A DNA stretch of 64,000 bases, from assembly GCF_054482595.1 (NCBI RefSeq), contig NZ_CM137008.1. The stretch is one strand, 5' to 3'. The translations under genes and the position numbers were made by a program. Under the pieces are notes generated by a model. That model did not search any database, was not told where the DNA came from, and saw nothing but the letters and a program-made list of their open reading frames with translations. Below, piece after piece: positions 1-63,426 of this stretch; within the stretch, counting starts at the first letter, position 1, and every line of letters starts with the position of its first letter.

Positions 1-531
1 CTGTGTAGAGACATCATAGTTTTGATAACTATTGCTTCCCCACCCTGCTGAAATTTCCGTTCCGGGTTCATCGCGCGTCGTGATGATATTCACCACCCCG
101 CCTATTGCATCGGAACCATAAACGGCGGAGCGCGGCCCACGGATATATTCAACACGCTGGACAAGCGCAATAGGGAACTGGCTAAGGTCGGCAGAACCAC
201 TCACCCCCGCCAGATTCAGGCGTACGCCATCAATTAACACCAACACATGACTGGCATTTGTACCGCGAATAAAAATAGATGAGAGCTGACCTGAACCGCC
301 GTTTTGGGTGATATCGACGCCCGGAAGACGGCGCAGCACATCATTAACCGAGGTCGACTGCCAGCGGTCGATATCCTGACGCGTCACAACGGTGGTTGGT
401 GCAAGCACAGTGCTGCGCGGCTGTTCAAAACGGTTAGCAGTAACGACGAGAGTATCCGGGCTGGTATCCTGTGCCCAAGCGGAAAAGGCTGTGACAGAAC
501 ACGCCGTCAGCAGCGAAGCTTTTTTAATCAT
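1..531 (-). CDS. btuB: Vitamin B12 TonB-dependent outer membrane transporter BtuB, N-terminal ~177 codons (gene continues beyond window start)
   Basis: Minus-strand reading from ATG at 531..529 gives [38 protein letters not shown] (signal peptide + TonB box). Absent from ORF track because truncated by window edge. Divergent from trmA as in E. coli. Confidence 0.9.
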
Positions 532-772
532 TGTAAAGCATCCACAATAGAAGAAGGATGCCGCAGGTTTCATCAATATTACGCGATGATGAGAACCAGA
601 TGCGACGTTGGCCGGCAGGTCTTCGGGCTTGGAGGGGTATCTAAGATACTAAGAGATGATGACTTCCCACCGAATGGCAGTGTCCGCATAACGCAATCAT
701 CGCACCTTTCCTTACCGCTGCGCGTCAGCTCCAGATTCGCACTGGATTCCCTATTAACTCACAGGACCGGCA
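532..772 (-). promoter_or_regulatory. btuB 5' leader containing the cobalamin (AdoCbl) riboswitch
   Basis: Minus-strand sequence upstream of the btuB ATG reads as the btuB leader (GCCGGTCCTGTGAGTTAATAGGGAATCCAGTGCGAATCTGGAGCTGACGCGCAGCGGTAAGGAAAGGTGCGATGATTGCG...). Extent approximate. Confidence 0.8.
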
Positions 773-899
773 AGTGGATGCTACAGGTTGTAACAAGTTA
801 CTGTCCAGACGTAGCTCACAAATAGGAATTCATCAAGATCTGGACATCTGATGAGCAATCCCTACAATCGCCGCGTACTTTAATTTTTCAGGATACATC

Positions 900-2000
900 A
901 TGACCCCCGAACACCTTCCAACAGAACAGTATGAAGCGCAGTTAGCCGAAAAAGTGGTACGTTTGCAAAGTATGATGGCACCGTTTTCTGACCTGGTTCC
1001 GGAAGTGTTTCGCTCGCCGGTCAGTCATTACCGGATGCGTGCGGAGTTCCGCATCTGGCACGATGGCGATGACCTGTACCACATCATTTTCGATCAACAA
1101 ACCAAAAGCCGTATCCGGGTGGATAGCTTCCCCGCCGCCAGTGAACTCATCAACCAGTTGATGACGGCGATGATTGCGGGTGTGCGTAATAATCCCATTC
1201 TGCGCCACAAGTTGTTCCAGATTGATTACCTCACCACGCTGAGTAATCAGGCGGTGGTTTCCTTGCTGTACCATAAAAAGCTGGATGATGAGTGGCGTCA
1301 GGAAGCGGAAGCCCTGCGCGATGCACTGCGAGCACAGAATCTGAATGTGCATCTGATTGGTCGGGCAACGAAAACCAAAATCGCGCTGGATCAAGATTAC
1401 ATCGACGAACGTCTGCCGGTCGCAGGGAAAGAGATGATCTACCGTCAGGTAGAAAACAGCTTTACCCAGCCGAACGCGGCGATGAATATTCAGATGCTGG
1501 AATGGGCGCTGGACGTAACCAAAGGCTCAAAAGGCGATTTACTGGAGCTGTACTGCGGCAACGGTAACTTCTCATTAGCCCTGGCGCGCAATTTTGATCG
1601 GGTATTAGCCACCGAAATCGCCAAGCCGTCAGTCGCTGCCGCGCAATACAATATTGCCGCTAACCATATTGATAACGTACAAATTATTCGTATGGCGGCA
1701 GAAGAATTTACTCAGGCGATGAATGGCGTGCGCGAGTTTAACCGCCTGCAAGGGATCGACTTAAAGAGTTATCAGTGCGAAACCATTTTTGTCGACCCAC
1801 CGCGCAGCGGTCTGGACAGTGAAACCGAGAAAATGGTGCAGGCGTATCCACGTATTCTGTATATCTCCTGCAATCCGGAAACGTTATGCAAGAATCTGGA
1901 AACATTAAGCCAGACGCACAAGGTCGAACGCCTGGCTCTGTTTGATCAGTTCCCCTACACGCACCATATGGAGTGCGGCGTATTACTGACCGCGAAGTAA
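900..2000 (+). CDS. trmA: tRNA (uracil54-C5)-methyltransferase TrmA
   Basis: 366 aa [35 protein letters not shown]...; SAM-methyltransferase motifs; synteny btuB-trmA-yijD-fabR. Confidence 0.95.
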
Positions 2001-2005
2001 AACCC

Positions 2006-2032
2006 ATGCCGGATGCGCCAGCATCCGGCATG
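2006..2032. terminator. Bidirectional intrinsic terminator between convergent trmA and yijD
   Basis: Hairpin atgccggatgcgccagcatccggcat immediately after the trmA stop. Confidence 0.6.
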
Positions 2033-2039
2033 ATACCGA

Positions 2040-2399
2040 TTACTCAGCAACTTCCTGCTTACGGTTACGCATCTTCGCGCCAATCCAGAACACCATAATG
2101 ACGGAGAGTACTGCCGGGAAGAAGTTAGAGCCGATATCCGGATATTCCGCACGAACTACCGTGCTGTACAGCAGTACGCCGAGAATAAAACAGGCAGCTG
2201 CCAGACCCGGCAAGCCTACCGGCATGGTGCGATTAAGATAACGTTGATGCAGGCAGTAAACCGTCAGCACCAGGGAAATAATCGGGAATACAGAAAATGG
2301 CACAATGGAGCTAAACAGCGCTGCGAAAGTACCATTAATCGATAAGCCAGCAACCAACGCCAGCAGCAGCGTACCTCTATCTTGATTTGCTTGTTTCAT
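2040..2399 (-). CDS. yijD: Inner membrane protein YijD (DUF1422)
   Basis: 119 aa hydrophobic [33 protein letters not shown]...; 1-nt overlap (TAATG) with fabR stop. Confidence 0.9.
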
Positions 2400-3046
2400 T
2401 ACTCGTCCTTCACATTTCCCGGAATAATTGCGGTTTTCTCTTGTTCACGGCGATACCAGTAATAAGCCCCTTTCGAAATCATTCGCAGTTGCAGTACCAG
2501 TCGCTCTTCTAATTGCCGACGTTGTTCGACGCCGACGTCCAACGCCTCGGCACCCGCACTGAAGACAATTGTCACCATTGCTTCGGCTTGCGCTTCAGTA
2601 AACGCACGCGGCATATGGTTTTCGAGTTCCAGATAGTCCGCAAGTTCCGCAATGAAGTGCTGAATTTCACGCGCAACGGCGGCACGAAACGCAGCGGAGG
2701 TGCCGGAGCGTTCCCGCAATAATAACCGGAAGGCGTTAGGATTATTACCGATGAACTCCATAAATGTGGAGACCGAGGTGCGGATCACACTCCCGCCTTT
2801 GGCGATACGCTGACGCGCCTGGCGCATGAGTTGGCGTAGCATTAAACCGCTCTCATCAACCATGGTCAGACCCAGTTCGTCTACGTCGCGGAAATGCCGA
2901 TAAAAAGAGGTGGGAGCAATGCCCGCTTCACGCGCCACTTCACGCAAACTCAAGCTGGCGAAGCTGCGTTCAGCACTTAATTGGCTAAATGCGGCTTCCA
3001 CCAGCGAACGGCGGGTTTTTTCTTTTTGTTGCGCTCTTACGCCCAT
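2399..3046 (-). CDS. fabR: TetR-family repressor of unsaturated fatty acid biosynthesis FabR
   Basis: Conserved protein starts [29 protein letters not shown]...; track ORF extends to 3142 but the conserved start is the internal Met (coordinate 3046). Confidence 0.9.
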
Positions 3047-3152
3047 CACGATGTCTGAATCCTTGCCAAAAGTACTGCTGGCACTATACCAGAGAATGAA
3101 CATACTGGATTGCTCCAGTATTGTGAATGAACGGTAACGCAATAAAACATAT

Positions 3153-4469
3153 TTACTGCAATTCTTTGGCCGGTTCTTTTACGTACAACAACGCCAACAT
3201 CGACAGCAACGTGCCTCCACCCAGATACCACGCCGGAGCCGTCAAACTATCCAGCAACACGATGGATTGCGTAGCGAAATATTGAGCAAAACCGCCAAAG
3301 ATTGCCACACCAATGCTATAAACCAGCGCAAAACCCAATGCCCGAATCCGTTTCGGCAACAGTTCAGAGATCAACAACATCACTGGCACACCGCCAAGCG
3401 TGGTAAAGCTGACCATCACGAAAACCACCGTCAGCAACATGCCAGGGCTTGGGTAATTCACCAACAGCCAGAATGACGGCCAGCTACAGATCAGCACCAT
3501 CACACGGGAGATTAAAATCAGCTTTTTACGCCCGACCGAATCGCACAACATCCCCACAAGCAGCGCACCCACAAACGTAATAACGCCCGCCAGTAACATC
3601 GCTGCATGAGAATAATGTTGAGGCATCGCCAGATACTTCGCCGCCCAGGTGCCGTAATAAAAGAGGGAGATATAGGTTGCGACCGTGCTACCAATAGCGA
3701 GTAAAACGCCATTAACGATAGTCGCCTTATGTTGCAGGAGCAGAGAAAACGCGCTTTCGCTGGTAGCAGCTTTTTTATTGCGCACAGGCTCAGGTACGTC
3801 ATTTTCCAGACTCAAACGCAACCAACAGCCGACAGGCGCTAATAACACGCCAATAAAAAACGGCACACGCCAGCCCCATTCAGCCATGACGGTTTCTGAA
3901 CCGGTCGCAAAGGGCAGCCATGCACTTAAACCTAAAGCGACAACACCTCCAAAAGTTGTTGCCAGGCCTTGAGTCGCCAGTGACCAACTGCTGTAAAAAC
4001 CGCGACGATTTGCCGGAGCTGACTCCACCAGTAGCGACATTGAAGCCCCAACTTCACCGCCTGCTGCAACACCCTGAATCAAACGAGCAAGTACCAGAGT
4101 TGCCGTTCCCCAATAGCCCGCCGTCGCATACGTCGGCGCAATGCCAATCATCAACGTGCCGAGGCTCATCAGGGCAATAGTGAACACCATCGCGGGTTTG
4201 CGTCCGAAACGATCGGCCCAGGCCCCGACGATAATTCCACCAAGCGGGCGCATAAAAAAACTCACGCCAAACGTTGCAAATGCCAGTAACAGCGCGACAT
4301 TGTGATCAGCGCTGGGTGGGAAGAAAAGTGTACTGATATAGACCACAAAAAAGTTGTAAACGCCAAAATCAAACAATTCGAGCGCATTGCCAAACGCCGA
4401 GGCAAAAATCACCCGCCTGCCGCTGGGCTTTTTCTTCACACTCACGGTTTCATTTACGATCGCCGTCAT
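3153..4469 (-). CDS. MFS transporter, metabolite:H+ symporter (MHS) family-like; substrate unknown
   Basis: 438 aa, many predicted TM segments, MFS signature region GxxxDRFGRK ([12 protein letters not shown]). Lies in a segment I do not recall between fabR and sthA in K-12. Confidence 0.8.
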
Positions 4470-4511
4470 TCCATGTTCCTTGCCAAAAAGTGTTGTTGTG
4501 TGTTGTTTTAT

Positions 4512-5678
4512 TTATTGCAGCCAGGCTTCTACCAGTGCGCCCCAGTAGCTGCTTGCCGGGACCAGACTTGCATCGTTGAAGTCGTAACCCGGGTTATGCA
4601 CCATGCAGGAACCTTCCCCGACATCGCCATTACCGAATAACAGGAAACCGCCTTTGGGTTGGGCTTCCAGCATGAAAGAGAAATCTTCACTGCCCATCAG
4701 AGGCTTGATGCCAAACTCGGCCAGCTCTTCACCAAACGTTTTACACGCCACCTGCCAGGCGAAGCGCGCCATCTCCTCGTCATTCACTAATACCGGTGTA
4801 CCGTTAACATGCGTAACCTCAGCCGTAGCACCAAAGCTGGCAGCCAGGGCTTGTGCCAGAGCAGGAATACGGGTCAGAAGAAGTTGTCGGGTATCGCGGC
4901 TAAGAGAGCGGACGCTGATTTTCATCTCAGCACTGTCAGGAATGACGTTAGCCGCCTCACCCGCAACAATGCTGCCGACGGTAATTACCGCCGCTTCCAG
5001 CGGATCGACATTGCGCGACACAATGCTTTGTAATGCGGTGGTGATATGTGCCGCGACCAGCACCGGATCGATGGCTTTGTGCGGGATCGCACCGTGTCCG
5101 CCACAACCACGAACTGTAATATGGAACTGATCCATTGACGCCATCAGTGCCCCTGGCTGGAAATAAAACTTACCCACCGGCAGACCGGGCATGTTATGCA
5201 TGCCGAAAATGACATCGCAGGGGAAATGATCAAAAAGCCCCTCTTTAACCATGATCTCACCGCCATTAATCATCTCTTCCGCAGGCTGGAAGATAAGACG
5301 TAACGTGCCGTTAAAACGGCGGGTTTCGGCAAAATAACGCGCGGCCCCCAGCAGTATGGTGGTATGCCCGTCATGCCCGCAGGCGTGCATTAAACCAGGA
5401 TGTTTACTGGCCCAGAGCTTGCCACTATTTTCATAAATCGGCAGCGCATCCATATCCGCCCGCAGGCCAATACTTTTCTCTCCGTCGCCCACTTTTAACG
5501 TGGCCACTATCCCCGTCGTCGCCAGTCCTTGCTCTACTTCATAGCCCCACTGACGCAGCTTTTCCGCAACCAAAGCACTGGTTTTAAATTCTTGTAATCC
5601 CAGCTCCGGGTTTTCGTGGATCTGATGGCGGATCTCACGCAGTTCTTCCTCAAACCCTCGAATATAGTGTTCGATCAT
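4512..5678 (-). CDS. M20D-family amidohydrolase (hippurate hydrolase / N-acyl-amino acid amidohydrolase-like)
   Basis: 388 aa with HACGHDGH metal-binding motif typical of peptidase M20D (AbgA/HipO/ILR1 type); co-oriented with the MFS gene, 42 bp apart. Confidence 0.8.
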   Translation of the reverse strand: MIEHYIRGFEEELREIRHQIHENPELGLQEFKTSALVAEKLRQWGYEVEQGLATTGIVATLKVGDGEKSIGLRADMDALPIYENSGKLWASKHPGLMHACGHDGHTTILLGAARYFAETRRFNGTLRLIFQPAEEMINGGEIMVKEGLFDHFPCDVIFGMHNMPGLPVGKFYFQPGALMASMDQFHITVRGCGGHGAIPHKAIDPVLVAAHITTALQSIVSRNVDPLEAAVITVGSIVAGEAANVIPDSAEMKISVRSLSRDTRQLLLTRIPALAQALAASFGATAEVTHVNGTPVLVNDEEMARFAWQVACKTFGEELAEFGIKPLMGSEDFSFMLEAQPKGGFLLFGNGDVGEGSCMVHNPGYDFNDASLVPASSYWGALVEAWLQ

Positions 5679-8403: not shown

Positions 8404-8516
8404 GAAACGGAGCGGCACCTCTTTTAACCCTTGAAGTCACTGCCCGTTTCGAGAGTTTCTCAACTCGAATAACTAAAGCCAACGTGAACTTTTGCGGATC
8501 TCCAGGATCCGCTTTT
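8404..8516 (+). ncRNA. oxyS: OxyS small regulatory RNA
   Basis: Sequence GAAACGGAGCGGCACCTCTTTTAACCCTTGAAGTCACTGCCCGTTTCGAGAGTTTCTCAACTCGAATAACTAAAGCCAACGTGAACTTTTGCGGATCTCCAGGATCCGC followed by T-run (intrinsic terminator). Confidence 0.93.
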
Positions 8517-51663: not shown

Positions 51664-52350
51664 ATGGACGCATTCATGCAGAATATTATTCTTTTATTTA
51701 TATATTTATTACTTATAGCCGTTAACCATTTCCGCTACAAATTTCTTTTATCTGGCAACGCGGGTGAAATGATTTTATATTTTGCTAACGTATTTTTTAA
51801 CCCACTTGCCTTATCATTTATTATCGCCACAATCATCTGTATAACGATAAAAAAAAGAAGCAGCCGCAGCTTTATTCGCGGCACTTGTTGGTTAATGGGA
51901 TTATTTCTTATCTATAGCAGCTATACGGTGTGGGAACGACACAGCATATGGGATTATACTTTCCCGGAGCCAGGTATCACCGTCACGGTTCCGAGCAAAC
52001 AGTGGGTTGCCAATATAGTAAAACAAGGACCAACCCTGGTGACCCGGGATGCCCATGCTATTTTAGCTATTGTTGCCTTCTCACAAAATGAACTCGGTGT
52101 GCATTCAATCGAGGAACTTACCGCGATTCAAAACGGAACTGCAGAAATGCATGTTTGTGATGTTCAGGGATTTGCCTGCGCTTATCAGGAAGGAGTGCAA
52201 ACAATGAGTGATGGCAAAGTAAGACATGCTATTTTCATGACTCTACTGGATAACACTAATTTGATACAACTGGTCGCAGCTATCGACCCAGATTATTTGG
52301 ACGAATATCAAGAAGAAGTAATGAAAATGATGCTTTCTGCTCGTCAATGA
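51664..52350 (+). CDS. Hypothetical membrane-anchored protein, paralog A (start may be internal Met at 51676)
   Basis: 228 aa ORF, AT-rich, 2-3 predicted N-terminal TM helices then ~150 aa domain; about 30% identical to the adjacent downstream ORF with shared motifs (SFxRGxCW, ISVTVP, HxC...F(A/T)CxYQ, MLSA). Confidence 0.6.
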   Translation: MDAFMQNIILLFIYLLLIAVNHFRYKFLLSGNAGEMILYFANVFFNPLALSFIIATIICITIKKRSSRSFIRGTCWLMGLFLIYSSYTVWERHSIWDYTFPEPGITVTVPSKQWVANIVKQGPTLVTRDAHAILAIVAFSQNELGVHSIEELTAIQNGTAEMHVCDVQGFACAYQEGVQTMSDGKVRHAIFMTLLDNTNLIQLVAAIDPDYLDEYQEEVMKMMLSARQ

Positions 52351-52382: not shown

Positions 52383-53099
52383 ATGAGATACGTTATCTTA
52401 TTAATACTATGGATAATAACTGTTTTTCTTAGTCATCTTCAGCACAGTAACTTGCTTACTGGAGATCCTGGGATGGTTGGCGAGTATATCGGTTCAGTAC
52501 TTCTTGGGCCGTTATTACTTCCCGTGCTTGTGTCAGGTATTCTGTGCACATTCACTAAAAAAACGCGTAACTTCGCCAGTTTTACTCGCGGGTGCTGTTG
52601 GGTATTGGGAGTCCTGCTTTTATCCAACGTCGGCAATACGTTTCGTCTGTTCACCCCGTGGCACTATACGTTTGAGAAGGCAGCTATTTCCGTGACTGTC
52701 CCAAACCGACACTGGAATACGGTTTCTATTAGTACTGATAAAACCATTGATATAAGAAGTGAAGATAATAGCGTCTTTATTTCTGCTTTCCGCCTGCCCG
52801 CAGGACGTAGCGCCGATGACTCGCTGGAAGAGTTAAAGAAGATGCAGCGAGACAATCTCAAGGATCAATACAATGAAGAAACCTTCCAGTTTCATGATTG
52901 TAATGCCAAACATTTCACCTGTAAGTATCAGGATGTGTTGATAAATTTTGATGGTCAGCAGAAAAGAACCATCAGTGTTTATCTTGAAGACACCCCCAGG
53001 GCTGTGGGGATCATTGCATTAATGGAGCCAGATACGGCAGATAAATATCGCCAACAGGCGATGGAGATTATGTTGTCTGCTAAAAATACAGTGAAGTAA
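52383..53099 (+). CDS. Hypothetical membrane-anchored protein, paralog B
   Basis: 238 aa ORF MRYVILLILWIITVFLSHLQ...; same architecture and conserved motifs as paralog A. Confidence 0.6.
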   Translation: MRYVILLILWIITVFLSHLQHSNLLTGDPGMVGEYIGSVLLGPLLLPVLVSGILCTFTKKTRNFASFTRGCCWVLGVLLLSNVGNTFRLFTPWHYTFEKAAISVTVPNRHWNTVSISTDKTIDIRSEDNSVFISAFRLPAGRSADDSLEELKKMQRDNLKDQYNEETFQFHDCNAKHFTCKYQDVLINFDGQQKRTISVYLEDTPRAVGIIALMEPDTADKYRQQAMEIMLSAKNTVK

Positions 53100-63325: not shown

Positions 63326-63426
63326 GCCATATGCGGCGCGAACGCCTTATCCGGCCTACAAAAGTTTGCAAATTCAATAAATTGCAGAATTCATGTAGGC
63401 CTGATAAGCGAAGCGCATCAGGCATT
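63326..63426. repeat. REP palindromic repeats
   Basis: gccatatgcggcgcgaacgccttatccggcctaca ... gtaggcctgataagcgaagcgcatcaggcatt. Confidence 0.7.

Follow-up and report, generated by a model that had tools for sequence, protein, structure and literature searches.

The btuB leader and its surroundings

The DNA analysed here, called the window throughout, is a stretch of 64,000 nt from E. coli, at the left end of which the beginning of btuB lies on the minus strand, preceded by its 5′ leader and by the divergent neighbouring gene trmA. PGAP names the btuB product 'TonB-dependent vitamin B12 receptor BtuB', placing the riboswitch of the leader directly 5′ of a cobalamin transport gene, and the N-terminus of the protein (177 residues in the window) contains a TonB-dependent receptor Plug domain (Pfam, E = 3e-31). 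An earlier sequence-only reading had assigned 532–772 to the btuB leader; this stood, except that the interval was one base too long, the leader ending at 771, and the functional unit including the promoter reaches approximately 807. The plus-strand ORF 304..825, of 173 aa and with a TTG start, is also present as that reading had stated. Leader position p corresponds to window position 772 − p, and the features of the locus are as follows.

532..771, minus strand: complete 240 nt btuB 5′ leader (aptamer plus expression platform), starting with GCCGGUCC at 771; 100 % identical to K-12 MG1655
802..807, minus strand: −35-like hexamer of the btuB promoter, TGGACA, from a consensus scan and confirmed in the sequence; function suggested by position and conservation
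778..783, minus strand: −10-like hexamer of the btuB promoter, TAGCAT, with an 18 nt spacer, from a consensus scan and confirmed in the sequence
597..786, minus strand: match to the cobalamin riboswitch aptamer RF00174 (cmscan), on the same bases as a PGAP 'cobalamin riboswitch' feature
611..771, minus strand: aptamer proper, closed by P1; pairs from the Rfam alignment, with covariation in 19 species
771..766 with 616..611, minus strand: P1, GCCGGU with GCCGGC, 6 bp, running from G1–C161 to U6–G156 in leader numbering
752..750 with 619..617, minus strand: P3, by Rfam projection
746..730, minus strand: P4, by Rfam projection
729..717, minus strand: P5 and L5, by Rfam projection
716..626, minus strand: long peripheral extension, by Rfam projection
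721..725, minus strand: loop L5, ACGCG, from the sequence; predicted kissing partner of L13, the L5–L13 contact being described in PMC5359240
614..629, minus strand: B12 box, AGCCCGAAGACCTGCC (AGCCCGAAGACCUGCC), from a pattern scan, with one mismatch to the approximate consensus AGYCMGGWGACCKGCC
566..597, minus strand: hairpin P13, core stem 592..587 with 575..570, from folding and sequence; the stem covaries strongly
537..562, minus strand: hairpin P14, anti-Shine–Dalgarno (anti-SD) GGCAUCC (562..556) with GGAUGCU (543..537), from folding, alignment and sequence
529..531, minus strand: btuB start codon ATG, with the PGAP start at the same base and the Plug domain downstream; the coding sequence (CDS) runs off the left window end
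484..515, minus strand: early-CDS hairpin with a U-rich tail, stem 515..502, a terminator-like site from the scan
322..451, minus strand: btuB CDS +81..+210, the reported Rho-dependent region (PMC11162775), mapped by coordinates alone
304..825, plus strand: ORF of 173 aa, a spurious antisense 'shadow' whose frame directly opposes the codons of btuB

The two hexamers form a sigma-70-like promoter that puts the transcription start approximately 7 nt downstream of the −10 element, at 771, consistent with the 240 nt leader of the literature, where a −240 to +99 fusion has been used (PMC11162775). The −35 sequence TGGACA is kept in related Escherichia, Citrobacter, Enterobacter and Pantoea leaders and is replaced by TAGACA in Serratia and TAGACC in Brenneria, and the −10 hexamer is TAGCAT or TAGACT in each of the 19 enterobacterial leaders that were compared. 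From Escherichia to Serratia, Pantoea and Brenneria, the spacing of the hexamers (778..807) is constant and the sequence between and around them diverges.

Identity of the riboswitch

A scan of window positions 1..3000 against all 4227 Rfam families (cmscan) returned RF00174, the cobalamin riboswitch aptamer, as its sole match, at 597..786 on the minus strand, scoring 87.0 bits where the gathering score is 31.5 (E = 2e-21 in the 3 kb search); a scan of the whole window gave the same match again (E = 4.2e-20). The alignment spans model positions 1–189 of 189, untruncated and uninterrupted. When the Rfam consensus was projected onto the leader, 37 of the 51 model pairs were canonical, including the 6 bp P1, P3, P4 and P5, and the other 14 were non-canonical or gapped, in keeping with a P2 that is truncated relative to the Rfam consensus and with outer P1 positions that lie upstream of the transcript. 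The first canonical P1 pair falls precisely on the inferred transcription start at 771, and four of the six model pairs further out, upstream of the transcript, are non-canonical. The 15 nt by which the RF00174 match extends upstream, to 786, are therefore model flank, because canonical P1 starts at 771.

The B12 box is near-invariant in the 19 enterobacterial leaders, where the lone change is a G-to-A in one Serratia. As 23 of 100 shuffled sequences also gave at least one match to the B12-box pattern, that pattern is weak on its own. Single-sequence minimum free energy (MFE) folding of 520..771 gave an energy no better than that of shuffled sequences (z = 0.24) and recovered the aptamer in part. 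Poor single-sequence folding is usual for large riboswitches with tertiary structure; MFE folding was uninformative here, so we relied instead on the covariance model and on comparative data.

Membership in RF00174 was accepted on the basis of a score above the gathering cut-off, the B12 box, the P1-closed junction, the complementarity of L5 and L13, and the location in the btuB 5′ UTR; every defining feature of a cobalamin riboswitch that can be looked for in sequence was found. The presence and identity of the riboswitch, its compatibility with the family structure, its covariation and the positions of its parts are direct results of the present analysis. Window positions 532..771 on the minus strand are almost certainly the 5′ leader of the btuB mRNA, carrying the classical E. 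coli adenosylcobalamin (AdoCbl) riboswitch. This bears out the sequence-only reading, which had identified the minus-strand leader in the same way and had suggested an RF00174 scan of the region as its check: the scan was strongly positive, and the Rfam hit and the B12 box, the two signals on which that reading had staked itself, are both present in the interval, together with the PGAP label and the identity to K-12.

Beyond mere family membership, the riboswitch is, base for base, the founding E. coli btuB example itself, and is as such already known. The 240 nt leader and the 128 nt upstream of it, as far as trmA, are 100 % identical to E. coli K-12 MG1655, which has the same downstream gene, the same divergent neighbour, and the same P1, B12 box, L5/L13, P13 and P14/SD, with no difference in the riboswitch (family RF00174, clan CL00101). 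Over its first 531 nt, the btuB CDS of the window has eight differences from K-12, every one synonymous, and the wider window differs by accessory genes elsewhere. The btuB riboswitch ranks among the founding examples of its class, and its ligand binding and translational control in E. coli were reportedly established by Nou and Kadner in 2000 and Nahvi et al. in 2002. AdoCbl binding and in vivo repression by AdoCbl have been published for the K-12 leader (PMC11162775, PMC5359240), and the RNA encoded in the window, which matches it at every base, is expected to bind AdoCbl as well.

Comparative support for the RNA structure

A DNA-pattern scan of species-representative genomes yielded mostly cobalamin riboswitches of Streptomyces and other actinobacteria, and only the 18 loci with btuB downstream were kept. 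These came from Escherichia, Citrobacter, Enterobacter, Serratia, Pantoea, Brenneria and other Enterobacterales and made, with the window, 19 leaders. On their alignment we counted 51 pairs, guided by Rfam and RNAalifold and including the L5–L13 pseudoknot.

Standard pairs occupied 94.9 % of the cells (51 pairs in 19 leaders), against 30–46 % in slid controls in which the 3′ partners were shifted by one to three columns. Compensatory double changes were seen at 13 pairs, in 59 cells, and the covariation score was reached by none of 500 shuffles. Hairpin P13 covaried heavily, with double changes at seven of its ten pairs, one of which was CG in 10 leaders, GC in six and AU in three; P4 and the helices of the extension covaried too. 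In P14, six of the seven pairs were invariant and the seventh held in 17 of the 19 species, and the four central pairs of the CGCG:CGCG core of L5/L13 were invariant in all 19 leaders. Such invariance is uninformative on the pairing itself, yet it points to a strong constraint on the very bases that the mechanism would need.

P1 was left out of the covariation count, as cutting the leaders at the E. coli +1 misaligned the 5′ strand of P1 in the more distant genera; inspected by eye, its CCGG/CCGG core was invariant, and the outermost pair varied between G–C, U–A and G–U. RNAalifold run on the 19 leaders without constraints proposed two other helices: one joins GGG at leader positions 21–23 to the B12-box GCCC, and the other is a small hairpin over leader 155–171. 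Neither is compatible with P1 and P3 of the Rfam structure, both involve invariant columns only, and for pair counting they were replaced by the Rfam pairs.

Expression platform and proposed mechanism

Downstream of the aptamer, the L13 loop of P13 holds CGCGU (585..581), which is complementary to ACGCG of L5 (725..721); that the two loops kiss is supported by the literature (PMC5359240, PMC11162775) and is probable here on the strength of this complementarity. Hairpin P14 encloses the Shine–Dalgarno (SD) GGA (543..541), 10 nt ahead of the AUG, and the scan found no terminator-like site within the leader (532..771). The expression platform is translational and of the SD-sequestering type: P14 covers the SD, and the leader is free of an intrinsic terminator. 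The terminator-like hairpin at 484..515, within the CDS, coincides by coordinates with the published putative attenuator at CDS +18..+48.

We propose that btuB is transcribed from 771 by the sigma-70-type promoter, and that the first approximately 161 nt of the transcript would fold into the cobalamin aptamer, in which a multi-helix junction is closed by P1, whose 3′ side carries the B12 box. With AdoCbl bound, loop L5 of the aptamer would kiss L13 of the downstream hairpin; P13 being thereby fixed, the anti-SD GGCAUCC could pair with GGAUGCU to form P14 and bury the SD. The 30S subunits would then be unable to bind, and less BtuB, the outer-membrane B12 receptor, would be made. In the ligand-free RNA, the anti-SD strand would be held in an alternative helix, leaving the SD free. 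The loss of translation would secondarily lower the level of btuB mRNA through elements early in the CDS, namely the putative attenuator at +18..+48 and Rho-dependent termination from +81 to +210. For ligand binding, SD sequestration, the role of the kissing loop and the involvement of Rho, the model draws on published experiments with the identical K-12 sequence, which would be expected to carry over; the bases of the alternative helix are those we infer.

Several of these steps have been examined in K-12 in one recent study (PMC11162775), in which the SD is named GGA and the helices P13 and P14 are named. There, the AdoCbl-bound OFF state is described as one in which the SD is sequestered, and the ON state as one in which an anti-SD/anti-anti-SD helix frees it. 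A BtuB81–LacZ fusion was repressed by 97 % by AdoCbl, and AdoCbl control was lost in a P13-pseudoknot mutant and in P14 mutants. The same study places the putative attenuator at CDS +18..+48, and reports that CDS +81..+210 is needed for the bicyclomycin-sensitive reduction of btuB mRNA by Rho that follows AdoCbl-induced translational repression, the Rho inhibitor bicyclomycin relieving repression approximately fourfold in a 210 nt fusion (PMC11162775). Ligand binding is accepted to be coupled to the expression platform through the L5–L13 kissing loop (PMC5359240). A 2017 ChIP study gave btuB a Rho termination score of 0.9, i.e. Rho-independent under its conditions (PMC5499598); set against the Rho dependence reported in 2024 (PMC11162775), this suggests that the contribution of Rho depends on conditions. 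Control by OmrA/Hfq through btuB CDS +66..+79 is a separate layer.

Many Firmicutes cobalamin riboswitches act through an intrinsic terminator in the leader, and control of btuB mainly by premature transcription termination of this kind, rather than at translation, would be one way to explain a fall in transcript. AdoCbl does lower btuB mRNA levels (PMC11162775), and there is the terminator-like hairpin with its stem at 515..502, though it lies inside the CDS. In the leader itself no such site was detected, P14, the conserved hairpin on the 3′ side, is not followed by a U-tract but overlaps the SD, and a six-codon transcriptional fusion was unrepressed whereas the translational fusion was repressed (PMC5499598). 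We therefore regard termination in the leader as a very unlikely main mode of control and retain translational, SD-sequestering repression.

Relation to known riboswitches and conservation in E. coli

The btuB RNA can also be set beside the crystallised AdoCbl riboswitches of Thermoanaerobacter tengcongensis and Symbiobacterium thermophilum, with which it shares the P3–P6 and P4–P6 coaxial stacks, the L5–L13 kissing loop and the B12-box region (PMC5359240; Rfam alignment), and from which the btuB aptamer differs by two extra peripheral stems, P9 and P12 (PMC5359240). A summary of these crystal structures (Johnson et al. 2012; Peselis & Serganov 2012) is given in PMC5359240.

Within the species, all but one of 5426 complete genomes (5425) gave a match to a 701 bp query (window 1000..300), which sits over trmA, the riboswitch and btuB in all 11 of the full-length matches listed. 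An E. coli O157:H7 genome is identical to the window over 300..1000, with a PGAP 'cobalamin riboswitch' at 786..597 and the btuB start at 531; in this strain, PV15-279, the identity is complete over 300..1000 only, the rest of the window being about 98.5–99 % identical (98.5–99.1 % overall) and the rhs region different. The window therefore stems from a different E. coli lineage, one that has the accessory genes between fabR and sthA in common with PV15-279.

Just 13 of the 5425 E. coli genomes had no single match covering at least 80 % of the query. In E. coli STEC1587 (NZ_CP129259.1), an IS3-family element lies between trmA and btuB, inside the aptamer at approximately leader +64 (window ~708), and PGAP calls no riboswitch at the interrupted leader. 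A mosaic btuB was found in E. coli SCPM-O-B-8794 when its locus was compared with window 1..3200: trmA, the promoter and the riboswitch leader are ~93–100 % identical, beyond the first ~100–130 nt of the btuB CDS identity drops to 58–74 %, and at the protein level the N-terminus of BtuB shows only 70 % identity. The pattern resembles that of an allelic replacement in which the receptor gene was exchanged and the native riboswitch kept; plausibly, though this is speculation, the replacement is linked to phage or colicin pressure on BtuB.

Natural disruption of the kind seen in STEC1587 raises the question of whether the aptamer of the window could be a decayed, non-regulating relic, with btuB expressed constitutively. 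Nothing specific favours such a relic in the window, where the whole leader and promoter are base for base those of the functional K-12 sequence and the RF00174 match is full-length and uninterrupted. We consider the idea most improbable, and take the window to carry an intact riboswitch.

A candidate ligand-free helix

When the SD strand was held unpaired in folding, the base of P13 was extended by a helix of GUCGCA (leader 166–171) with UGCGGC (leader 207–212), which overlaps three bases of the anti-SD strand. The two segments concerned, ACGUCGCA (608..601, minus strand) and UGCGGC (565..560, minus strand), are mutually complementary and invariant in the 19 enterobacterial species. The ACGUCGCA/UGCGGC helix is a candidate for the pairing of the ligand-free ON state.

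The most adventurous reading of the locus would make ORF 304..825 a young, Escherichia-restricted gene or a translated antisense transcript or, in a milder form, would make ACGUCGCA/UGCGGC a previously undescribed ligand-free anti-SD helix. We allow this reading the slightest of chances, and for the young gene the present evidence offers no positive support.

The opposite-strand ORF

That ORF 304..825 is a genuine 173 aa gene antisense to the btuB start and leader, with the riboswitch signal secondary or coexisting, has in its favour a frame that is open for 173 codons from a possible TTG start, and that is open also in K-12 and in the divergent locus of SCPM-O-B-8794, but it is vanishingly improbable in the light of the evidence that follows. 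No Pfam family matched the translation even at E ≤ 1, neither PGAP nor the curated K-12 annotation has a CDS at this position, and approximately 15 billion predicted proteins, searched as one collection, include no exact match to it. The scan for promoter-like sites in 300..1000 found none ahead of the ORF; the sole plus-strand site, at 841..868, is downstream of it and fits trmA.

Comparison with related loci bears on the same point. In-frame stops occur in 17 of the 18, so that the frame is not conserved, and the differences in leader length from one species to another are not multiples of three. One of the 17 is E. coli E69, which has an identical BtuB N-terminus and a leader 1 nt longer. 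All five substitutions that separate K-12 from the window in the overlap are synonymous in btuB and non-synonymous in the ORF, a small sample with an unambiguous direction.

The extent of the frame has a simple origin at its left end. A stop in the directly opposed frame requires TTA, CTA or TCA as the sense codon; btuB has none of these before the TCA at codon 80, which sets the left boundary of the ORF. Antisense shadows are common: the window has 66 ORFs of 150 aa or more, of which 19 overlap a longer opposite-strand ORF, 14 of these 19 in the same opposed frame. ORF 304..825 resembles the shadow ORFs found opposite highly expressed or codon-biased genes in its frame, which directly opposes that of btuB; it differs from them in that approximately 56 % of it extends past the CDS, across the leader and promoter. 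This non-coding stretch is by chance free of stops in the ORF frame in E. coli, and not in related genera.

The sequence-only reading had called the ORF almost certainly spurious, and every test run, on Pfam families, annotation, exact matches, frame stops and substitutions, agreed. Judged by these comparisons, ORF 304..825 is to be regarded as a chance antisense shadow rather than a gene. The consequences are ones of annotation hygiene only: the btuB AdoCbl riboswitch should be labelled (leader 532..771, promoter to ~807) and the 173 aa plus-strand ORF dropped from gene tracks. Meeting the K-12 version of this riboswitch unchanged in E. coli DNA adds no new biology.

Other features of the window

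Four further Rfam matches, all above the gathering score, were found across the window: the OxyS sRNA at 8404..8513 on the plus strand (139.5 bits), next to oxyR; the L31 ribosomal-protein leader upstream of rpmE at 43455..43507 on the minus strand; the ClpQY (hslVU) promoter element at 48119..48176 on the plus strand; and the ES036 sRNA at 63361..63402 on the plus strand. OxyS, the L31 leader and ClpQY sit where E. coli gene order predicts.

Between fabR and sthA (~3153..5678, minus strand), the window has two accessory genes, for a citrate-proton symporter and an M20 aminoacylase; they are present in O157:H7 and absent from K-12 MG1655, where fabR and sthA are adjacent. A broken rhs element occupies 40373..43076 on the minus strand, with an N-terminal DUF6531 fragment at 42654..43076, a C-terminal fragment with RHS and DUF4329 at 40373..41293, and a DDE_Tnp_1/DDE_Tnp_1_assoc transposase at 41414..42487 between them. 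O157:H7 PV15-279 has an intact 4.2 kb rhsC at that site, and the window departs from the genome of this strain over 41404..42693. Lastly, two adjacent plus-strand genes next to rraA (51664..52350 and 52383..53099) encode proteins of 228 and 238 aa that have hydrophobic N-termini, look mutually related, match no Pfam family and are annotated as 'hypothetical protein' in O157:H7.
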